From positions 1 through 30,104 of IMG/VR virus record IMGVR_UViG_3300029521_000019: a DNA stretch of 30,104 bases; one strand, written 5' to 3'. Every line of letters starts with the position of its first letter. Position 1 is the first letter of the stretch. The DNA comes from a virus. The position numbers and the translations under genes were made by a program. Below, in pieces: positions 8,645 to 30,016 of the stretch. Under the pieces are notes generated by a model. That model was not told where the DNA came from. It did not search any database and saw only the letters and a program-made list of their open reading frames with translations.

Positions 8645-8680
8645 TTGACGTGTATCTAATACGTGTATATAATGATATAC
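8645..8680 (+). promoter_or_regulatory. Promoter (TTGACG-17-TATAAT) with an overlapping palindromic operator GTATATAATGATATAC
   Basis: The -35 is at 8645..8650 and the -10 at 8668..8673. The operator (8665..8680) matches the operator core at 27766..27781 and 29684..29699 at 15 of 16 positions. Confidence 0.6.
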
Positions 8681-8724
8681 GTCGAAGCAAGCAAGGAACT
8701 AAACTATGGATTGGAGTGGTAATC

Positions 8725-8814: not shown

Positions 8815-8832
8815 AATACGAAAGGAACCATC

Positions 8833-9138
8833 ATGCAGTACACGACTGAAGAACTTCAAACTACTCTTGATCTCCACAAAAAATGGCTATACAACAAGGA
8901 AGAAGGAAAACGCGCTGACATGCGCTTCGCTGACCTGCGCTTCGCTGACCTGCGCTTCGCTGACCTGCGCTTCGCTGACCTGCGCGACGCTGACCTGCGC
9001 GGCGCTGACCTGCGCTTCGCTAACCTGCGCGGCGCTGACATTAGCGACGCTGACCTGCGCGACGCTAACATGAGTGGCGCTAAAAACATCCCTGAAATAG
9101 CATGTTTTATTACGCGGGCAGAAGCAGAGAATTACTAG
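8833..9138 (+). CDS. Pentapeptide-repeat protein
   Basis: There are 11 consecutive A(D/N)LxX pentapeptides (ADMRF ADLRF x3 ADLRD ADLRG ...). The RBS is CGAAAGGAAC. Confidence 0.85.
   Translation: MQYTTEELQTTLDLHKKWLYNKEEGKRADMRFADLRFADLRFADLRFADLRDADLRGADLRFANLRGADISDADLRDANMSGAKNIPEIACFITRAEAENY
8914..9078 (+). repeat. 15-bp tandem repeat (11 units) encoding the pentapeptide repeats
   Basis: GCTGACCTGCGCTTC is repeated exactly three times (8929..8973) and is flanked by diverged copies. Confidence 0.9.
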
Positions 9139-9367: not shown

Positions 9368-9408
9368 CGTGCATCTTTTTGTTGTGCGCTTAAACCGAAA
9401 GGAACATT

Positions 9409-10098
9409 ATGAGTGATGGTATCGAAAAGCTGAAAGAATGCGCTTACGACATGGATCAGATGCAATGCGATGACGTTTTAGTGTTAGCAGATCAAATCGA
9501 GCGTGAGCATGCATCAGAGTTGCAGGCGATCGAAGCCGAGATGGACAAGCGCCTGATGCCTCCGGGGATGGAGTGGCCGAAAGACCGCAACGAAAACCCG
9601 TTCGACCCTCGCAAGCTGTACGACAGCGGATGCGGAGCCGTTGACTTTGTTCGAATCGGGTTCGTCAACGGCGAGCAATGGGCAAGCGTCGTGTCGCACG
9701 ATGGGAACGATCTTTTGCCCGAAGAGCTTGGCGATTGCGAACCAGAGGTGCTAGGAGCGGATGGCCTGCCGATCAAGGTTGGCGAGACGGTGTGGTACGT
9801 GGGCGAACCCCTAGTGCGCGGAACCGTCGAAGCCGTCGGCGAGGGCGAGGTGATGCTGGCTGGCGACGGCGTGTATGCGCCCTTAGACCTCACCCACACC
9901 CAACCCGACCTTAAACTGCGTAAGTGCCCATTTTGCGGCGGAGAGGCCGACATGGTCGACGAAGGATCCGAGTGCTCGCCTGATCGGTTCTGGGCGTACT
10001 GCACGAATCCCAGCTGCTTCGTCGAAGGGACGGGCGTTTACGCGACGGAAGAGGAAGCCGCGCAAGCATGGAATACCCGCGTAGAATACAATATCTAG
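9409..10098 (+). CDS. Protein with a C-terminal Lar-like (restriction alleviation family) zinc ribbon
   Basis: The C-terminus reads LRKCPFCGGEADMV...YCTNPSCFVEG...ATEEEAAQAWNTR, matching the Lar-family pattern CPFCGG...C..C...eeA..aWN.R. The N-terminal ~165 aa were not recognised. The RBS is CCGAAAGGAAC. Confidence 0.6.
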   Translation: MSDGIEKLKECAYDMDQMQCDDVLVLADQIEREHASELQAIEAEMDKRLMPPGMEWPKDRNENPFDPRKLYDSGCGAVDFVRIGFVNGEQWASVVSHDGNDLLPEELGDCEPEVLGADGLPIKVGETVWYVGEPLVRGTVEAVGEGEVMLAGDGVYAPLDLTHTQPDLKLRKCPFCGGEADMVDEGSECSPDRFWAYCTNPSCFVEGTGVYATEEEAAQAWNTRVEYNI

Positions 10099-11548: not shown

Positions 11549-11592
11549 AGGTCAGCCGGATAGCGGGTAGCATAGCCATAACGTAACGAATG

Positions 11593-11617
11593 GAGCCTTG
11601 GAAACAGGGCTCTTTTT
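11593..11617 (+). terminator. Rho-independent terminator closing the accessory island
   Basis: GAGCCTT / AGGGCTC form a 7-bp stem including one G-U pair, with loop GGAAAC, followed by TTTTT (11613..11617). Confidence 0.7.
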
Positions 11618-11901
11618 CGCTATAATAGTGGCATGCTCACAACATGGCTATATAGCCCGAGGCGTATGCGAACCTGTGACACTCGCGCATACTGGCACCG
11701 AAGGCGTTGAAGATGTTGCCATATTTTTTTTTGGGGTCGAACCCCTATAGGTCTGCATATCAAAAGTCGCAAGCAACATAATCTACCTAGTTGACCGACA
11801 AAGGTTGACGACGAGTGCAGTATCCGCTCCTGATAAACAATACTTATCCTAATGACTAAAATCCATATGAGTTATACCGCATTTATGCGGTGTAACGACG
11901 T

Positions 11902-11940
11902 GGAGGGGAGCGGGAGGGGAGGCCGGAACGTCCTCCCCTC
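11902..11940 (+). other. G-rich direct repeat (GGAGGGGAG / GGAGGGGAG-G) plus a perfect 9-bp hairpin GAGGGGAGG...CCTCCCCTC
   Basis: The arms are 11914..11922 and 11932..11940. A second G-rich copy at 11902..11910 could pair with the same C-rich arm. No T-tract follows. Confidence 0.6.
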
Positions 11941-12038
11941 GCACCGTACAGCAAGGTAGCAGCGTTAGCGTCAACCGGACGGCTTAATAGCTACGGCCAT
12001 AACTCTATGATCGCCCCATGATCGCGTAAAACGCTATG

Positions 12039-12079
12039 CGGTACGATTTTCGTACCGGTGGTACGATTTTCGTACCGGT
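12039..12079. repeat. Two tandem 20-bp units GGTACGATTTTCGTACCGGT, each an inverted repeat
   Basis: 12040..12059 equals 12060..12079. The arms are CGGTACGA / TCGTACCG with a TTT spacer. The units lie about 50 to 90 bp upstream of the late-operon -10. Confidence 0.9.
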
Positions 12080-12127
12080 ATGCCGAATCTAAGCTTCGTA
12101 TACTGTTGATCATGCGTTTACCATATA

Positions 12128-12136
12128 TGCTATAAT
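12128..12136 (+). promoter_or_regulatory. Candidate late-operon promoter, extended -10 TGCTATAAT
   Basis: A perfect TGnTATAAT lies about 90 nt upstream of the scaffold gene start. No clear -35 is present. Confidence 0.5.
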
Positions 12137-12223
12137 TCAGGTAGCATTGCGGCCGCTTGAGCGCCGCCCGTCCATTAGCGCTAGCCACGCTTAAAAGCAG
12201 GCTTTACGGATAGGAGCATCACC

Positions 12224-16880: not shown

Positions 16881-16932
16881 CGTGGTAGAATAGCACTAAA
16901 TCGGCAGGGGTGTCGATTAGAGGGATGCTATT

Positions 16933-21745: not shown

Positions 21746-22194
21746 TGCCAACGACGAAAAACCTAGGACTTGTAAACGTGTTGGAGGGGGAAAACTTTGA
21801 CATTGACGTTTACAACGGGAATAACAACAAGGTAGATGCCTTTGCTGGGACGGTGCCGAAAAAAAAGACGCTGTTTGAAAATGCTAACGGCACAAGTAAC
21901 ACGATCGCGCTTAATGACAGCGCGGCAAATTACGATTATGTACTAATTTCATGGGTAGACAATGACGGGTTTTATCACGCCGATACGCCATGCATCAACG
22001 GCAAAAAAGCTCAATTATCTACAATACACGTCAGACATGAAGTTCCTGCCTATGCTAAAAGCGCTGTTGTCAATGTTGCTGGAACGTCAATCTCGTTTGA
22101 GAGCAATTTTCAGATGCAATTACCACCTGGCACTATTAATAGCAACATAATACCTGTTAGAATTACTAAAGTTGTAGGCGTTAAAGGTTTCTGA
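21745..22194 (+). CDS. Small tail fibre / receptor-binding protein candidate
   Basis: The N-terminus (TKNLGLVNVLEGENFDIDVYNGNNNKVD) resembles the N-terminal motif of tail fibres. The gene is AT-rich and lies between Dit and Tal with overlapping start and stop codons. Confidence 0.45.
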   Translation: MPTTKNLGLVNVLEGENFDIDVYNGNNNKVDAFAGTVPKKKTLFENANGTSNTIALNDSAANYDYVLISWVDNDGFYHADTPCINGKKAQLSTIHVRHEVPAYAKSAVVNVAGTSISFESNFQMQLPPGTINSNIIPVRITKVVGVKGF

Positions 22195-24920
22195 TGATAG
22201 TACTAAAGCTTGCAGACGGTAGTACTCTACACGACGTGCGCGATAATAACCGGCAAGTAGTCGGGTATATTTCCGACGCTAAAAACGCCGTTGGTACGCT
22301 AGATTTCGACATATACCCGAAACATCCTGCTTATAACGCCATTAAGGCTGGAAGCACGAAGATACGAGCATATCGTGACGGCATGTGGACGCATGATTAC
22401 ACGGTAGAGAGCGTGACGAACGACCTGCAGCTAAAAAAGCATGTTACCGCAACGGACGAATTGCAGTACCTAGAGCGCATCGAAGTACCATCGTACAAGA
22501 CAGGCGTTGATGGCGTACCGCAGACGGTTAGCGGGTTGTTTATGTGGCTCATCGAGTACTACAACGCTCGAAGCGGTGGAGAGCGTTTCGCGTTTGGCCA
22601 GATCGAGGGCGATATCATTGATCCTACAAAGACGCTGGATCGCAGCAGCGATAGCCCGGCAACAGTGGCTAGCATCGTCAAAGATAAGATCATCGATTCG
22701 CTTGGCGGTTACGTGCGCGTGCGTCGCGTCGATGGCGTGCTTACGATTGACCTCAAGGCTGATGCTGCCGGTGTTTGCCATCAGTATATCGAGTTCGGCG
22801 AGAACCTGGTTGATTATGCCGACGAGCAGGACGCGAGCGAGCTATACACCGCGGTCACGGCCGAAAGCAAGTACAAGGACGATAATGGCGACGAGGTTAC
22901 TGTAACGTTATCAGACGCGCCCGATGGCGATTACCTTGCTGGTTATGTAAAGAAAGGTGATACGGTAACTAATACCGCAGCAGCAGCAGCATACGGAGTT
23001 CGTCGCAAGCACCTAACGTTTGACGTGGTTAAAAACGTATATACTCTTGTCGAAAATTGCGAAAAGTATATAGCAGCTCATTGCGAGCCTGTCACCACTG
23101 TTAACGTAAGCGCTGCCGACCTATCAACGCTTGATAGTAACGTCCAGTCGTTTGATGTTGGGCTTTATACGCGAGTCAAGGCTGCCCCGATGGGCTTTGA
23201 TGCGGCGTTTGAGTGCCAGGTCGCCAAGCGCAGCCTTAACGACCCCACTGAGGATAAATACACGCTGGGATGGACGTGGGGCAGCCTGTCATCGATCAAC
23301 AACCGCAAGATCGTTGAGACGGCTCTAGGCATCGGCAAGCTGGAGCAAGCAACCACAGAGATAGATCAGGCTGCTAAAGACGCGGCGCAAAAGGCGCAGA
23401 CTGCGCAGGATGTTGCGATCGCGGCAAACATAAATGCTACTGATGCAGTAACAAAAGCAGACAGCGCCAAAGAAGAAGCGACAAGCGCGAGCGATACTGC
23501 ACAACGCGCAGAAGCGATATCTGCGGAAGCAAAGCAGACCGCAACGCAAGCAAATGGGGTTGCGCAAGACGCGAGCGAAACCGCTTCGACAGCGGCAATC
23601 ACGGCGGCGCAGGCTGGCGCAACAGCTACCGAGGCAAAGCAGACAGCAACGCAAGCAGCAAGCGACCTATCGAATTATGCGACTAATACCAACCTGATGC
23701 TGAAGGATATGCAAGGCCAGATCGACGGAAGCATCACGACATGGTTCTTCGCGGTTCCTCCGACAAACGAAAACGCACCAGCTAATGAGTGGACGACAAC
23801 CGACCTCAAAAATAAACACCTTGGAGACTTGTACTACGACACCAACACCGGCTACTCGTACCGATGGCAAGTGCTCCAAAGCGTTTACTCTTGGCAGCGT
23901 ATTACCGACGTTGATGTTACCAAGGCGCTTGCTGATGCCTCTAAGGCGCAGGATACCGCAGACGCTAAGCGTCGCGTATTTTACTCGCAGCCTGTGCCGC
24001 CTTATGACAAGGGCGATCTTTGGAGCCAAGGCACAAACGGCGATATGCTCATATGCTCAACGCCTAAAACAGACGGCATGAGCTATCTCGCATCAGACTG
24101 GGACAAGGCCAGCAAGTACACAGACGATACAAAGGCTATTGAGGCCGAGGGATTAGCAGAAGAGGCAGCAAAGACAGCAACGGACTTTATCGACTTTGGA
24201 GCTGATGGGCTTATTGTCGGCGATATGACGGATGGTGCCCTTGCCGGCAACGTGCGAATCGCCTCGGACGGTATCGAGCTAAGGGACGGTACAAGCGTAC
24301 TAGCGCGCCTTAAAGCTGGATTGCTAGAGCTAGCTGCAAACTCCGTTAACGCCATTATTAAGCTGTGCGGAGGTAAAGGAATTATCGCTTATTATGCCGG
24401 CACTGATCAGCTTGCCATTATGTCGCCCGGCTCTATCGCTATGGCGGCATGCCAGACGCTACCAGACGGAACGGTGCAGCCATACGACTCCGGCGTAGCA
24501 TGCAACAAAAGCGGCGTTCTTTTGAAGGGTGCCGTGGAGGCTTCCGGCACCTTCAAGATCAACGGCAATAACATGGCAGACTACGTGGTAGCCCAGGGCA
24601 CGAGCGGCATCTGGCGGTGGCGCAAGTGGTCTTCGGGGTTGGCCGAGTGCTGGGGCAATACGTCTACTCCGACGAACACGAACCTGCCGTGGGAGGGTAT
24701 GAGATACGACGGGACGATGCGCGGAGGCCACGCCCTCCCGTTCGCCCTTACGCGGATCATACATTCAGACGTTACCATCGAAGACCCTGGCGGCGGAGCG
24801 TTCTGGCCAGGCGTGCATACGGTGTTCAAGGACAAAGCCCCGAAGTTCTTCGTACTTAGCGTCGGCAACTATTCTAGGACGATATACCTGCACTACTACG
24901 TTACCGGGACATGGAAGTGA
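22194..24920 (+). CDS. Tail-associated (Tal-like) minor structural protein / tail fibre
   Basis: The 908-aa product has an N-terminus like the phage minor structural protein N-terminal region. An Ala/Thr/Gln-rich coiled coil lies centrally (about 23330..23670), followed by a C-terminal globular domain. Confidence 0.7.
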   Translation: MIVLKLADGSTLHDVRDNNRQVVGYISDAKNAVGTLDFDIYPKHPAYNAIKAGSTKIRAYRDGMWTHDYTVESVTNDLQLKKHVTATDELQYLERIEVPSYKTGVDGVPQTVSGLFMWLIEYYNARSGGERFAFGQIEGDIIDPTKTLDRSSDSPATVASIVKDKIIDSLGGYVRVRRVDGVLTIDLKADAAGVCHQYIEFGENLVDYADEQDASELYTAVTAESKYKDDNGDEVTVTLSDAPDGDYLAGYVKKGDTVTNTAAAAAYGVRRKHLTFDVVKNVYTLVENCEKYIAAHCEPVTTVNVSAADLSTLDSNVQSFDVGLYTRVKAAPMGFDAAFECQVAKRSLNDPTEDKYTLGWTWGSLSSINNRKIVETALGIGKLEQATTEIDQAAKDAAQKAQTAQDVAIAANINATDAVTKADSAKEEATSASDTAQRAEAISAEAKQTATQANGVAQDASETASTAAITAAQAGATATEAKQTATQAASDLSNYATNTNLMLKDMQGQIDGSITTWFFAVPPTNENAPANEWTTTDLKNKHLGDLYYDTNTGYSYRWQVLQSVYSWQRITDVDVTKALADASKAQDTADAKRRVFYSQPVPPYDKGDLWSQGTNGDMLICSTPKTDGMSYLASDWDKASKYTDDTKAIEAEGLAEEAAKTATDFIDFGADGLIVGDMTDGALAGNVRIASDGIELRDGTSVLARLKAGLLELAANSVNAIIKLCGGKGIIAYYAGTDQLAIMSPGSIAMAACQTLPDGTVQPYDSGVACNKSGVLLKGAVEASGTFKINGNNMADYVVAQGTSGIWRWRKWSSGLAECWGNTSTPTNTNLPWEGMRYDGTMRGGHALPFALTRIIHSDVTIEDPGGGAFWPGVHTVFKDKAPKFFVLSVGNYSRTIYLHYYVTGTWK

Positions 24921-24964: not shown

Positions 24965-24973
24965 TGCTATAAT
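24965..24973 (+). promoter_or_regulatory. Candidate extended -10 promoter TGCTATAAT
   Basis: A perfect TGnTATAAT lies 45 nt after the Tal stop. No -35 is present. Confidence 0.4.
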
Positions 24974-24979
24974 GGTACT

Positions 24980-25040
24980 TGTGAGGTAACAATACCTCAT
25001 ACACCCCTGCTAAAGAGTCGGCAAAACGTCGGCTCTTTTT
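24980..25040 (+). ncRNA. Candidate ~60-nt sRNA (RNA-A): 5' hairpin, C-rich linker, terminator
   Basis: The hairpin is TGAGGTA-ACAA-TACCTCA (24982..24999), the linker is ACACCCCTGCTAA, and the terminator is at 25012..25040. It is antisense to the 3' end of the minus-strand micro-ORF. This is a prediction only. Confidence 0.3.
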
Positions 25041-25111
25041 GCTACAACAGCAAGCACAGCAGCACGGATGCTTGCAAAAAGATATGACTTATGCGATAAT
25101 GCAATAACCAT
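25010..25111 (-). CDS. Candidate 33-aa micro-ORF, the only supported minus-strand ORF in the window
   Basis: MVIALSHKSYLFASIRAAVLAVVAKRADVLPTL. The ATG is preceded by the extended SD GGGAAAGGAGTGAAC at optimal spacing. No convincing minus-strand promoter was found. Confidence 0.3.
   Translation of the reverse strand: MVIALSHKSYLFASIRAAVLAVVAKRADVLPTL
25012..25040 (+). terminator. Rho-independent terminator (end of the late operon)
   Basis: GAGTCGGC / GTCGGCTC form an 8-bp stem with two G-U pairs and loop AAAAC, followed by TTTTT. Confidence 0.7.
25072..25100 (+). promoter_or_regulatory. Candidate promoter TTGCAA-N17-GATAAT with a TG extension (TGCGATAAT)
   Basis: The -35 is at 25072..25077, the TGn at 25092..25094 and the -10 at 25095..25100. 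Confidence 0.5.
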
Positions 25112-25172
25112 GTTCACTCCTTTCCCTCATGGTTCCTTTCGGAAAAGCCCCTGCTAACGCGGGGGCTTTTGC
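25106..25172 (+). ncRNA. Candidate ~65-nt sRNA (RNA-B) carrying anti-SD-like sequences
   Basis: The 5' hairpin is AACCATG / CATGGTT (25106..25112 and 25128..25134) with loop TTCACTCCTTTCCCT. GGTTCCTTTCGG follows, then the terminator at 25143..25172. It is antisense to the SD and start of the minus-strand micro-ORF. This is a prediction only. Confidence 0.35.
25143..25172. terminator. Bidirectional-looking terminator hairpin (A-tract, 9-bp GC-rich stem, T-tract)
   Basis: AAAAGCCCCTGC-TAAC-GCGGGGGCTTTT. Confidence 0.8.
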
Positions 25173-25196
25173 TTTATAATGCATGGAGGAGGTAAT

Positions 25197-25490
25197 ATGA
25201 CATCTTGTTTGGAAAATTGTTCAACCCATTCTGCCCACCAGAGGGCGATTGCACAGCATGACAAACGCCTTGATGCACACGGTGATGAGATTGATAACCT
25301 TCGCGAGTGCGTGGTGCGCCTCACGTCCCTGCAGGAATCAAACGCTAAGTGGAAGGATGTTGCAGAGGAGCGAATCGCTGCCTTGGAAGCCGCTCCATCA
25401 AAACGCTGGGACAACCTTGTCAACTACGTGGTTACTGCCATTGTAGCGTTGGTAATCGGTATGGTCGCCGGACAAATAGGACTCAACTAG
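25197..25490 (+). CDS. XhlA-like lysis-associated membrane protein (putative)
   Basis: ATG 25197 follows GGAGGAGG. An N-terminal coiled coil (HDKRLDAHGDEIDNLRE) is followed by a single C-terminal TM segment (NYVVTAIVALVIGMVAGQIG). It lies upstream of the holin and amidase, as in PBSX-type cassettes. Confidence 0.5.
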   Translation: MTSCLENCSTHSAHQRAIAQHDKRLDAHGDEIDNLRECVVRLTSLQESNAKWKDVAEERIAALEAAPSKRWDNLVNYVVTAIVALVIGMVAGQIGLN

Positions 25491-26813: not shown

Positions 26814-26846
26814 TATATACAGTTACAATCCGACGAAAGGAACACT

Positions 26847-27692
26847 ATGAATGAGATCGTAAAAATCAAGGACGACCGCGGGCAAGAACTTCAGATAACG
26901 CCAGACGACGTGCGAAACGTACTCTGTCCTTCTGCTAACGACAAAGAAATATCCATGTTCCTCGAATTGTGCCGTGCGCAGAACCTCAACCCGTTCATCA
27001 AAGATGCGTACCTCGTGAAGTACGGTAGCAACCCAGCAACGATTATCACCGGCAAGGAAGTGTTCACCAAGCGAGCAGCCAAGAACAAGAGTTACAAAGG
27101 GTTTGAGGCGGGCATTACGGTACAGCGCGGAAACAGCATCGAGCGCCGCGAAGGCAGCGCTGTATTCGATGGGGAAAAGCTATTAGGAGGTTGGGCGCGA
27201 GTACACGTTGATGGTAAGCATCCGTTTTTTGACGAGGTGGCGTTTAGCGAGTATTCGAGCGGAAAAAGCAACTGGGCGACCAAGCCAGGAACCATGATCC
27301 GCAAGGTAGCACTAGTCCACGCTCTCCGCGAAGCGTTCCCGGATGATTTCCAGGGGCTTTACAGCGCCGAGGAAATGGCGCAAGACACGCCGCAAGAGCC
27401 GCAAGAACAATCCTCGCAGCCCATTGAAGTCGAACCTGAACAAGTTATCGAACGCGACGAAAACATACATGCAGAATACGTAAAGGCTACTCGTGATGCC
27501 GTTGAGGCAGGAATTAAGCGCGAAGGTATCATGTCATGGTTTGAATCGCGGTTTGGCCATGAAATGGGGCATATTAACGATGCCGAAAAGCTTGCAACTA
27601 TCGAATGGTGCAAAGCACGAACGGCTGAAGCTAACGAGCTAAGCATCAATCCGCAAGAGCCTGTTCTTATGGATGATGATATAGCGTTTTAG
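26847..27692 (+). CDS. recT: RecT/Bet-family single-strand annealing recombinase
   Basis: LNPFIKDAYLVKYG, NWATKPGTMIRKVALVHALREAFPDDFQGLYSAEEM is the conserved RecT/Bet signature. The RBS is CGAAAGGAAC. Confidence 0.85.
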   Translation: MNEIVKIKDDRGQELQITPDDVRNVLCPSANDKEISMFLELCRAQNLNPFIKDAYLVKYGSNPATIITGKEVFTKRAAKNKSYKGFEAGITVQRGNSIERREGSAVFDGEKLLGGWARVHVDGKHPFFDEVAFSEYSSGKSNWATKPGTMIRKVALVHALREAFPDDFQGLYSAEEMAQDTPQEPQEQSSQPIEVEPEQVIERDENIHAEYVKATRDAVEAGIKREGIMSWFESRFGHEMGHINDAEKLATIEWCKARTAEANELSINPQEPVLMDDDIAF

Positions 27693-27745: not shown

Positions 27746-27782
27746 TTTACAGCACTAACAACTATGTATATAATAATATACA
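27746..27782 (+). promoter_or_regulatory. Promoter TTTACA-17-TATAAT overlapped by the 18-bp palindrome TGTATATAATAATATACA
   Basis: The -35 is at 27746..27751, the -10 at 27769..27774 and the palindrome at 27765..27782 (7-bp arms, 4-bp spacer). The palindrome is identical to 29683..29700. Confidence 0.65.
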
Positions 27783-27810
27783 TAAGGTAAGGCAAACGAA
27801 AGGAACGATC

Positions 27811-28677
27811 ATGGAAGCAACCATCATCGAGAACGAACTTGCAAGCGTTACAAGCGCGATAAGCATTGACCAGGACGCAATCGCCGATGCGCTAAAACGC
27901 ATGACCGCCGTCATCGACGAGAGCGAAAATCTATGCGAAGAATGCGAAGTTGACGGTGAAACGCTGGCGAGCATGGAGACTGCAGACGTAAAGCGGTTGC
28001 AGCAGGCGCTGAACGCGAAGATCACCGAAGGCAAGACGGCTCTAACCGATTTTAACCGCGTGTTCGATGCTCCTAAGAAAACCGTAAAGGCAGCGTATGA
28101 CAAGGCCGTAGAACCGCTTACAGCGCTTCAAGCGGCGTACAAGGCTCAACAGGTCGCAAACGAGCAACGCGAGAAAGACGAGAAGCGAGCGCAGCTGGAG
28201 GCTCATTTTTACGAGTATGCCGGCGTGCTTGATCATGTTGCGAATTACGATCAGGTGCATGACGATAAATGGCTGAACAAAGGGTGCGCGCTATCTAAAG
28301 CATTCGGCGAAATCGAAACTATTGTTGACGGCATCGCGAAAAGCTGGCAAACGCTAAAGACGCTCGACCTGCCAATGTTCGACGTTGCCGAACGAACGTT
28401 TTTTACCACCTTCGACCTTGACGCAGCAATAAGCGCGGCGAACCAAGCGCAGGCAGATCATGAGCGCATCGAAGCTCTAAAAGCAGAGCAAGCCGATATG
28501 ATGCAGCAGCGCGAAGAGGAAAAGCATGAGCAAGAGCCTGAACAAGAGCAGCCTAGCGTCAACGACGAGCCTCGCGCCGCTACGGTTGTTATCGAAGCGG
28601 CTACGCTGGAACAGTTGAAGCAACTCGCCGAATCTATGCGCAATATCGGGCTACACGGCACTATTAAGAGAGGGTAG
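27811..28677 (+). CDS. DUF1351-like recombination-module protein (function unknown)
   Basis: The 288-aa acidic coiled-coil-rich protein lies next to RecT and SSB, the usual context of DUF1351-type genes in Gram-positive siphophages. The RBS is CGAAAGGAAC. Confidence 0.45.
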   Translation: MEATIIENELASVTSAISIDQDAIADALKRMTAVIDESENLCEECEVDGETLASMETADVKRLQQALNAKITEGKTALTDFNRVFDAPKKTVKAAYDKAVEPLTALQAAYKAQQVANEQREKDEKRAQLEAHFYEYAGVLDHVANYDQVHDDKWLNKGCALSKAFGEIETIVDGIAKSWQTLKTLDLPMFDVAERTFFTTFDLDAAISAANQAQADHERIEALKAEQADMMQQREEEKHEQEPEQEQPSVNDEPRAATVVIEAATLEQLKQLAESMRNIGLHGTIKRG

Positions 28678-28870: not shown

Positions 28871-29316
28871 GCATTAACCGAGTAATCATCAGCGGGAATC
28901 TAACGAGGGATGTTGAGCTGAGGTCGACTGCGAGCGGGCTTCCGGTTCTTTGCTTCGGCGTGGCCGTGAACGATCGCCGCAAGAACCAGCAGAGCGGCGA
29001 GTGGGAAGATTACGTTAATTTCATCGATTGCACCATGTTCGGCGCGCGTGCTGAGAGCGTGTCGCGATTCTTGGACAAGGGCGCGAAGGTGTCTATCGAA
29101 GGTAAGCTGCGCTGGAGCCAATGGGAACGCGACGGACAGAAGCGCAGCAAGATAGACGTGATTGTAGATGAGCTTGAGTTCATGTCGAGCCGCAACAATT
29201 CGTCGTCATACGGCGGCGGTCGCACGGGCGGCTACTCCGCTCAGGCGGCAGTTCCTATGGCTGCTCCGGTGGTTGATGCTTCTTCTTCGATCTACGACGA
29301 AGACTTGCCATTTTAA
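28867..29316 (+). CDS. ssb: Single-stranded DNA-binding protein
   Basis: The OB-fold N-terminus (NRVIISGNLTRDVELR...GKLRWSQWE) is followed by a Gly-rich linker and the acidic tip DEDLPF. Confidence 0.9.
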   Translation: MSINRVIISGNLTRDVELRSTASGLPVLCFGVAVNDRRKNQQSGEWEDYVNFIDCTMFGARAESVSRFLDKGAKVSIEGKLRWSQWERDGQKRSKIDVIVDELEFMSSRNNSSSYGGGRTGGYSAQAAVPMAAPVVDASSSIYDEDLPF

Positions 29317-29325
29317 GGAGTAAAC

Positions 29326-29619
29326 ATGGAGCCTACTCAATTGCTCAAGAAGTCTATAATCTGGGTAAACAATAATCGTGATGCCTACTATCAGATCGAG
29401 CGTCAATGTATGATCATGAGGTGCGACAACCGCGTACCACGCGTTAAGCATGCAGCGGAGATCGTGCGAGGCAATGGCGTTGCTGTAAATAATAGCGCAC
29501 TAGCTTTTGTGGCTCGCCTGATAGAGCACAATACCGGTGTTAGATCATGGACGGCAAAAAGTAAGATAGACGACCTGCTTACAGAAGATTTTTGGAAAGC
29601 CTGGGACATAAAGCACTAA
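29326..29619 (+). CDS. Hypothetical protein
   Basis: The 97-aa ORF has an AAGGAG RBS and was not recognised. It is the last gene before the terminator. Confidence 0.5.
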   Translation: MEPTQLLKKSIIWVNNNRDAYYQIERQCMIMRCDNRVPRVKHAAEIVRGNGVAVNNSALAFVARLIEHNTGVRSWTAKSKIDDLLTEDFWKAWDIKH

Positions 29620-29663: not shown

Positions 29664-29700
29664 TTGACACCTTAGATTAACGTGTATATAATAATATACA
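29664..29700 (+). promoter_or_regulatory. Promoter TTGACA-17-TATAAT overlapped by the 18-bp palindrome TGTATATAATAATATACA
   Basis: The consensus -35 is at 29664..29669, the -10 at 29687..29692 and the palindrome at 29683..29700. Confidence 0.7.
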
Positions 29701-29731
29701 TGCAGTAAACAACAAACAGAAAGGAACTAAA

Positions 29732-30016
29732 ATGAACATCGATGGAGTAGATTACGTACCAGTATCAGAATTAGCGTCGTTCAATAATAGCGACCACGTG
29801 TGCGTTATCGCTGATCGCGGATGGATATTTGAAGGGTACCGCGAAGAAGGAACAACAAGGCTTACAAACGCTCATGTAGTGCGTAAATGGAGCAACGGTC
29901 TTGGAATCGGCGGGCTAGCTGATCCTGACTACAAAGATGATTATACTCTTGATAATATCGGCTGTATCGAATTATCACCTAACGCAATTATCGCGGTAAT
30001 ACCGTTGGAGTGGTAA
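29732..30016 (+). CDS. Hypothetical early protein
   Basis: The 94-aa ORF has the RBS GAAAGGAAC. It is the first gene of the operator-controlled two-gene operon that ends with the Gly-X repeat ORF. Confidence 0.55.
   Translation: MNIDGVDYVPVSELASFNNSDHVCVIADRGWIFEGYREEGTTRLTNAHVVRKWSNGLGIGGLADPDYKDDYTLDNIGCIELSPNAIIAVIPLEW

Follow-up and report, generated by a model that had tools for sequence, protein, structure and literature searches.

Does the gap between the tail and lysis genes of a phage encode an RNA able to act on genes located elsewhere in the same genome? The question is raised by the IMG/VR virus record IMGVR_UViG_3300029521_000019, whose 30,104 nucleotides (nt) were analysed as a whole and are referred to here as the window. 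The window is a near-complete genome and a relative of Eggerthella phage PMBT5 (NC_048022, 30,930 base pairs (bp), genus Lentavirus), with a nucleotide identity of about 92-94%. The locus lies inside a 276-nt gap running from the large tail gene (22194-24920) to the first gene of the lysis cassette, which is composed, in this order, of an XhlA-like gene (25197-25490), a gene of 70 amino acids (aa), and an Amidase_2 endolysin gene. We suggest, tentatively and with slightly less than even confidence, that the gap encodes a phage small RNA (sRNA), RNA-B, whose two seed modules would be antisense to the ribosome-binding sites (RBSs) and translation-initiation regions of early genes.

A predicted small transcription unit upstream of the lysis cassette

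The existence of a well-signalled and conserved small transcription unit on the + strand is supported by the sequence of the gap. The predicted promoter, P_B (25072..25100), is made up of a -35 box TTGCAA (25072-25077), a 17-nt spacer, and an extended -10 box TGcGATAAT (25092-25100), and it scored 9/12 with TG in a consensus scan. The predicted RNA-B, of about 65 nt (25107..25172), comprises a 5' hairpin (hairpin B, 25107..25133) with arms ACCATG and CATGGT and a 15-nt C/U-rich loop (25113-25127), an unpaired linker, and an intrinsic terminator (terminator B, 25143..25175, or 25143-25170 according to the terminator scan) with a 12-bp stem, the loop TAAC, and a U-tract. The fold of positions 25107-25176, with a minimum free energy (MFE) of -28.7 kcal/mol and z = -5.85, consists of the same hairpin, unpaired linker, and terminator, the linker being unpaired in both the MFE and the centroid structures. 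The scan of the whole window with the Rfam covariance models gave no match at the gathering threshold.

The comparison set included the window and 11 related contigs, namely PMBT5, L004, L005, L010, L011, L012, L014, L015, L016, L040, and L042. Apart from PMBT5, they were located via their XhlA-like homologues, except for L011 and L012, which were retrieved with a DNA pattern in which the hairpin loop, the 3' arm, and the linker were left free; a search of IMG/VR for further relatives returned PMBT5 only. The unit is carried by the window and by all 11 relatives examined; in PMBT5 the predicted RNA lies at about 22445-22510. Sequence conservation starts exactly at the -35 box, the spacer upstream of it showing 23- and 13-nt indels, and all the substitutions in P_B fall between the hexamers, which are kept. 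The stem of hairpin B is invariant, and its loop varies both in sequence and in length (11-15 nt). The core of the linker, UCCUUUCG, is invariant in all relatives while the adjoining spacer and loop vary and its immediate flanks differ (GGGTCC, ...CGT). As for terminator B, alignment columns 47/56 form U·G in seven of nine sequences and U-A in the other two, and one sequence has G·U where the others have G-C; one-sided changes preserve pairing. Since these wobble pairs would be A·C mismatches on the - strand, they fit a + strand RNA only.

This bears on the alternative that the - strand is the functional one, encoding a micro-open reading frame (ORF; the form already contained in the original prediction), a small protein, or a type I toxin from Shine-Dalgarno (SD)-like sequences, and that the complement on the + strand is a side effect. 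Two SD-plus-ATG arrangements (GAAAGGAACC-ATG and GGAAAGGAGTGAAC-ATG) do exist on the - strand. However, the 13-aa micro-ORF (MRERSEHGYCIIA) is thrown out of frame by a 4-nt deletion in L004 and L005, and the second ORF has 17, 33, 45, or 79 aa with unrelated C-terminal tails. The substitutions in the loop codons, read on that strand, are all non-synonymous with the exception of one AGG-to-CGA change, in which Arg is kept; moreover, the SD-like block stands 1 nt from the ATG, versus 3-4 nt in real genes. The consensus scan predicted no promoter on the - strand, and if the conserved TATAAT is read on this strand its final T is absent in relatives. Finally, every phage gene lies on the + strand (in PMBT5, 44/44 annotated genes are on one strand). 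Non-conservation of the ORFs, the 1-nt spacing, and the strand-specific wobble pairs make a - strand micro-ORF an extremely improbable cause of the complement. A type I toxin-antitoxin pair was likewise rejected, as no small hydrophobic ORF is conserved on the opposite strand, where the ORFs differ in length (13-79 aa), show frame breaks, and end in unrelated tails.

Complementarity of RNA-B to early-gene start regions

The 9-mer GAAAGGAAC occurs six times in the window, versus 0.14 exact matches expected, and none of 100 shuffled sequences reached six. Five copies are on the + strand (starting at 8820, 9397, 26835, 27798, and 29719) and end 3-4 nt 5' of the ATGs at 8833, 9409, 26847, 27811, and 29732; a C directly precedes four of the five. 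The block and ATG belong, respectively, to a pentapeptide-repeat gene (8819..8835), a Lar-like gene (9395..9411), recT (26834..26849), a gene annotated as DUF1351 in PMBT5 (27797..27813), and a 94-aa gene (29719..29734). The sixth copy is on the - strand, at 25132-25140, and the + strand of RNA-B at 25131-25142 reads GGTTCCTTTCGG, the complement of the RBS block; the contiguous complementarity to the five RBSs extends for 13, 11, 10, 10, and 9 nt. The original prediction had claimed both this shared block at five early genes and its perfect complement, with these same lengths, and on both points it was borne out. In every gene using a GAAAGGA-type SD, including all five genes with the block, the next two bases are AC, most other genes using AGGAG-type SDs; the shared block is therefore longer than an SD alone. 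PMBT5 retains all six copies of the 9-mer and has, in addition, GAAAGGAAA at an extra gene. The 9-mer is also found once in L006 (14364-14372), where it serves as RBS 3 nt before a 175-aa gene (14376); L006 is an unrelated phage (its XhlA-like protein is 58% identical) without an RNA-B-like unit.

A second stretch of complementarity involves the loop of hairpin B. The original prediction had pointed out that this loop, TTCACTCCTTTCCCT (25113-25127), resembles the 3' end of 16S ribosomal RNA (rRNA), and in the window it does, differing from UCACCUCCUUUCU by one deletion; the loops of the relatives (TTCACTCCATTCCTT, TTCACACCTTTCCTT, TTCACTCCATCCTCG, CTCACTCTTCG, and CTTACTCTTCG) have lost the resemblance, on which account a conserved mimic of the 16S anti-SD was rejected. 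The loop appears to be better accounted for as the antisense of a particular RBS and start region. Indeed, positions 25109-25127 are the reverse complement of 1470-1488 (AAGGAAATGAGTGAACATG) at 17 of 19 positions (0.00 matches expected). This candidate target is the SD-to-ATG region of a gene for a DnaC-like/IstB_IS21 protein (ATG 1486), with a predicted duplex energy of -27.4 kcal/mol. The commonest loop variant among the relatives, that of L014, L015, and L016, would match the 19-mer of the window at 18 of 19 positions, the DnaC-like starts of these phages lying beyond the ends of their short contigs. Within the same region, GAGTGAACATG occurs exactly at 1478-1488, and a copy with one mismatch, GAGTAAACATG, is present at 29318-29328, in the SD-to-ATG region (AAGGAGTAAACATG, 29315..29328) of a 97-aa gene located after SSB (ATG 29326), which is a further candidate target.

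The predicted RNA-B is bipartite: module 1 (25109..25127) is formed by the 5' arm and the loop, and module 2 (ATGGTTCCTTTCGG, 25129..25142), the complement of the (C)GAAAGGAAC block, by the 3' arm together with the unpaired linker. The similarity of module 1 ends at the edges of the start region, the flanking coding and upstream sequences being unmatched. When the - strand image of the module is compared in register with the DnaC-like start region, 14 of 16 positions agree, which is the maximum observed among 820 pairs of real start regions (mean 5.1). Considering the whole + strand, perfect complements of at least 11 nt to any of 41 start regions (-20 to +3) are confined to 25109-25119 and 25129-25142.

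The complementarity is non-random and early-specific, and it reaches two further early genes through the hairpin loop, as is supported by the predicted pairing energies. 'Early' was assigned from gene function and promoters, the early-type set being composed of the pentapeptide/Lar cassette and of the block from recT to the NTP-pyrophosphohydrolase gene. The mean cofold gain with RNA-B was -11.0 kcal/mol over 17 early start regions, and it was -5.1 over the 21 that belong to structural genes (Mann-Whitney p = 8.6e-5). With 300 shuffles of loop plus linker the difference was -2.2 ± 1.1, none reaching the observed -5.9, and the early-set mean falls in the 1.7% tail of the shuffles. PMBT5, although not independent of the window as a sample, gave the same pattern (p = 4.7e-4). 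The duplexes with RBSs carrying the block ranged from -16 to -24 kcal/mol, vs -10 to -12 for the 3' tail of 16S rRNA. When RNA-B was cofolded with the 41 start regions, the top partners were the DnaC-like/IstB gene (1486) and the 97-aa gene (29326), because of the second complementarity, that of module 1.

Starting from the transcription signals, strand, conservation, unpaired seeds, and non-random early-specific complementarity observed in silico, the following mechanism can be proposed. Transcription of RNA-B would start at a sigma-70-type promoter of its own and stop at its intrinsic terminator. Module 2, through the core UCCUUUCG, would pair with the CGAAAGGAAC block of the pentapeptide, Lar-like, recT, DUF1351-like, and 94-aa genes, and module 1 with the SD-to-ATG regions of the DnaC-like loader gene and of the 97-aa gene. 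Such pairing would cover the SD and the start codon and keep the 30S ribosomal subunit off, so that anti-restriction, recombination, and replication genes would be translated less. The production of RNA-B, its timing, and the repression of translation by pairing are steps that we infer.

A bolder version of this idea, which we consider rather doubtful, is that a single bipartite antisense RNA of about 65 nt might act as the master post-transcriptional early switch of a virulent phage of a gut actinobacterium, addressing seven dispersed early genes (anti-restriction, recombination, and replication loading) by means of two RBS 'addresses' and representing the RNA counterpart of T4 RegA/RegB; the same RNA could also act on the early genes of relatives that superinfect the cell and block them, an RNA-based exclusion without lysogeny. 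To our knowledge, regulatory RNAs of virulent phages, and especially of phages of gut Actinobacteria, are almost unexplored. If RNA-B worked in the way proposed above, it would offer a compact and experimentally tractable case of translational timing of early genes by a phage, achieved with a single RNA and short RBS 'addresses' and no proteins, and the seed/address pairs could be put to direct use as orthogonal switches of translation in Eggerthella, a gut species that is hard to engineer. The prediction is concrete: seven targets and two seeds.

A different explanation of the shared block is that it is the operator of a protein, such as a RegA-like repressor or a RegB-like SD-cutting nuclease, to which RNA-B would be unrelated. 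The block is longer than an SD requires and is confined to early-type genes, and in phage T4 early mRNAs are controlled by such means. No candidate for the protein emerged from the analysis, however, and the occurrence of an exact complement together with a second antisense module in a small transcribed unit would be left unexplained; we regard a protein operator as very unlikely.

Readings in trans, in cis, and as a remnant

Several points weigh against an early-gene antisense role of RNA-B. Once an anti-SD-like core UCCUUUC is given, just three further bases are needed for the 10-mer match, and in the full-length cofolds the five genes with the block rank 4th, 5th, 6th, 9th, and 14th of 41. 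The relatives all belong to one genus and are close, so that conservation is only weak evidence. More distant phages cannot be used to separate the RNA from its putative targets: XhlA-like homologues below about 70% identity belong to other phages without the RNA-B intergenic unit, and phages with RecT relatives at 39-58% identity have neither the RBS block nor RNA-B, so that there is no lineage testing one without the other. A covariance model of RNA-B, searched for distant relatives, retrieved only a terminator, in L031, and the pattern scan of genome contigs gave chance matches and one spacer of a clustered regularly interspaced short palindromic repeat (CRISPR) array.

The evolution of seeds and targets points in the same direction, no compensatory RNA-target covariation being seen among the relatives. 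In L010 two target RBSs are changed, GAAAGGAGC being found at the recT position and GAAAGGGAC at DUF1351; both changes are A-to-G opposite U, so that pairing is kept as G·U. By our own estimate, two pairing-compatible changes are expected by chance about once in four cases. In L004 and L040 it is the RNA that has changed, without matching changes in the targets. Their linker reads GGGUCCUUUCGU (GGGUCC), leaving a 9-bp core (ACGAAAGGA:UCCUUUCGU), and their loop is 4 nt shorter, module 1 being both shortened and mismatched. The sequence CAUGCUCAC or CAUGCUUAC mismatches the unchanged DnaC-like start of L004 (-17 vs -27 to -29 kcal/mol). In L040, GAAAGGATG is found at recT and GGAAGGAAC at a 51-aa gene occupying the position of the 94-aa gene; its DUF1351 gene lacks the block, and the loader gene is a different one. 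The idea of an sRNA masking early RBSs, as advanced in the original prediction, is upheld in part, as regards the conserved + strand unit and the early-specific complementarity, and not as regards the conservation of the 16S-like loop or the co-variation of RBS motif and RNA.

The 'late' timing of RNA-B, moreover, was read from its map position alone. P_B appears as an ordinary sigma-70-type promoter without the palindrome found at early promoters, and, as P_B and the neighbouring promoter P_A both lack it, timing is not readable from the sequence. The palindrome in question, TGTATATAATAATATACA, covers the -10 box of three strong sigma-70-like promoters (8645-8673, 27746-27774, and 29664-29692; 0.03 expected), its copies in the window being at 8664-8681, 27765-27782, and 29683-29700, with a partial one at the recT promoter; a regulator common to the early transcription units probably uses it as operator. 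The paper describing PMBT5 does not mention promoters, terminators, or intergenic regions; in the other E. lenta phage study found, the RNA sequencing reads were mapped to the host genome only; and our literature search for phage transcripts in the PMBT5 group found none.

Lastly, the C/U-rich region of RNA-B is able to pair in cis with the SD of the lysis gene. This opens the possibility, which we hold to be unlikely, that RNA-B works chiefly in cis, as the leader of the lysis cassette: in read-through transcripts the hairpin-B region would mask the initiation site of the first lysis gene (SD GGAGGAGG plus ATG, 25185..25199), keeping lysis translation low or delayed, the short RNA being a by-product or acting in trans on that same site. 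When the read-through leader, from 25107 to +12 of the XhlA-like gene, was folded for nine relatives, the SD core was paired with the hairpin-B region across the terminator, the probability being close to 1 for eight of them and 0.37-0.97 for L004, and, when all 27-mers of the genome are compared for pairing with the lysis-gene start, the native one falls in the 2% tail. The divergent clade has a GUGAGCA of its own just 5' of the SD, and each of its variants UGUUCAC, UGCUCAC, and UGCUUAC pairs with it, the differences being C/U opposite G. In addition, the unit always borders the lysis cassette on its 5' side, and this holds even for L011 and L012, in which another gene opens the cassette. On the other hand, swaps of 5' and 3' halves between relatives, scored as duplex and full-fold matrices, revealed no native-specific gain (permutation p = 0.21), so that co-evolution of hairpin B with the lysis start found no support in this comparison. 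The terminator is strong and no competing antiterminator structure exists, since the sequence upstream of it is C/U-rich like its own 5' arm and cannot pair with that arm; the terminator-intact MFE structure accounts for 54% of the ensemble, and an attenuator or riboswitch-type leader was dismissed. Masking in cis would also leave the invariant linker UCCUUUCG unpaired and unexplained, as well as the 17/19 match to a distant gene start, and the TATAATG 3' of the terminator could yield a leaderless lysis mRNA. The trans and cis models are not mutually exclusive, as a prematurely terminated leader can act in trans too.

The TATAATG just mentioned (25175..25181) lies 3' of terminator B and 5' of the lysis-gene SD. 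All relatives have it unchanged amid variable flanks, and it may be a -10-box-only promoter for the lysis cassette. In L011 (1300-1370) and L012 (1340-1410; both on the minus strand as read), a module including a second predicted RNA (RNA-A, see below), RNA-B, and the SD is followed by a different first lysis gene, the exchange point being the start codon; its product starts with MSPELLQLASFGISALMAIIALI and is membrane-protein-like.

It is finally possible, though in our opinion quite unlikely, that the unit has a genuine promoter and terminator and yet does not regulate anything, being an insulator/terminator pair, a moron-like remnant, or an inverted fossil of gene starts, and that the block is simply the favoured RBS cassette of this lineage. 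The erosion of the complementarity in L004 and L040 without compensation would fit this view, as would the use of GAAAGGAAC as RBS by the unrelated L006 without RNA-B and the presence of variable extra genes in the slot between tail and lysis genes (a 60-aa ORF in L004 and a 66-aa ORF in L042). It would not account, however, for a similarity that stops exactly at the edges of start regions, for two independent antisense modules packed into 34 nt and absent from the rest of the 30 kb, for an early-versus-late specificity beyond all 300 shuffles, or for a linker core that is invariant while the neighbouring spacer and loop are variable. The extra ORFs (9560-9742 in L004 and 9549-9749 in L042) lie between the tail gene and RNA-A, so that the slot resembles a moron site; the 60-aa product of L004, MMDQILYHVIVWAVCGVAGFAV..., looks membrane-spanning.

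Known systems and neighbouring elements

Among known systems, the closest to RNA-B in terms of putative function appears to be the c4 antisense RNA of phages P1/P7, followed by the Gram-positive sRNAs with C-rich seeds; by our comparison RNA-B is a member of none of these families. The c4 RNA (immI) is a short structured phage RNA whose unpaired segments pair with distant sites of the mRNA, one of which covers an RBS; it is cut by RNase P from the same operon transcript, and it acts in prophage immunity on a single operon (icd/ant). RNA-B would share with c4 the use of unpaired segments of a short structured phage RNA against sites elsewhere, including RBSs. It differs from c4 in having its own promoter and terminator, in belonging to an apparently virulent phage, and in its seven dispersed candidate targets, and the two have no sequence or Rfam relationship. 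The small RNAs sar of P22 and OOP of lambda also have a promoter and a terminator and act by base-pairing, sar covering the ant RBS; these RNAs come from the strand opposite their target, to which they are complementary throughout, whereas RNA-B lies 1.7-23 kb from its candidate targets, with a complementarity of 9-19 nt.

RsaE/RoxS, LhrC, RNAIII, and the 6C sRNA of Actinobacteria consist of hairpin(s) and a terminator, and pair through unpaired C/U-rich loops or linkers with purine-rich SDs in a number of mRNAs, without Hfq. They are chromosomal Rfam families, and a cmscan of the RNA-B region, even at E values up to 10, matched none of them (6C and RsaE included), nor c4; moreover, the seeds of RNA-B, unlike those of the C-rich-seed sRNAs, take in the spacer and the start codon of particular phage genes as well. 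The best match in that scan was sub-threshold, to the Pseudomonas rnk leader (RF01772, 32 bits vs a gathering score of 55), and was driven by a similar terminator (CGGAAAAGCCCC...GGGGCUUUUGCUUU). Membership of RF01772 was rejected, the first helix being unmatched, the host phylum unrelated, and the score below gathering.

In phage T4, the translational repressor RegA and the SD-cleaving endoribonuclease RegB shut off many early mRNAs through a shared feature of their initiation regions. The logic proposed for RNA-B would be the same, the effectors being proteins there and a candidate RNA here. With lambda PR'-tR' the resemblance is one of layout only: the order of P_B, terminator B, and XhlA-like gene is that of the lambda unit, in which a constitutive-looking promoter gives a short terminated '6S' RNA followed by the lysis genes, at the start of the late operon, with the antiterminator Q reading through. 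Unlike in lambda, the lysis cassette of this phage is placed at the end of the structural genes.

The CRISPR spacer recovered by the pattern scan belongs to an array at 5200-5560 of L020, a contig of a metagenome-assembled genome of Gordonibacter sp. (JAYFOQ010000023.1), with repeat GTCACTCCCCACACGGGGAGTGCGGATTGAAAT (type I-C-like). The spacer is identical to positions 25129-25165 of the window but for one base (25155). Directly before this protospacer, most relatives have TTC, the protospacer-adjacent motif (PAM) of type I-C, and the window has CTC (loop CCCTCATGG vs CCTTCATGG), which may be a PAM-escape change inside the loop of RNA-B.

The same gap harbours a second predicted + strand unit, RNA-A (24965..25043), which includes an extended -10 box TGcTATAAT (24965-24973), a hairpin (24980-25001), an invariant stretch ACACCCCTG (25001-25009), and a terminator (fold z = -5.63). 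The invariant sequence, ACACCCCUG in the RNA, is unpaired. The terminator stem shows compensatory, both-sided changes between two clades, and, as judged by eye, the hairpin stem also differs between them (GUGAGGUA/UACCUCAU vs CGGGAUA/UAUCCCG), MAFFT misaligning the hairpin; the G·U pairs of RNA-A fit the + strand only. The only perfect complement of the invariant 9-mer on the + strand is CAGGGGTGT at 16905-16913, which is kept in PMBT5, L004, and L010. It closely follows an extended -10-like TGgTAGAAT, and 20 nt separate it from the tape-measure GTG (16933) downstream. This complement of 9-10 nt near the tape-measure gene is not significant alone, about 0.4 being expected by our own estimate.

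Finally, some 600 nt at 11590-12220 are without an annotated gene in the window and in PMBT5 alike. They hold a terminator (11592-11613), -10-like boxes at about 11621 and 12130, a G/C-rich hairpin GGAGGGGAG...CCTCCCCTC at about 11900-11940, and a tandem direct repeat of two copies of GGTACGATTTTCGTACCGGT at about 12040-12080; the stretch may serve as a packaging site or an origin, or may encode a further RNA.

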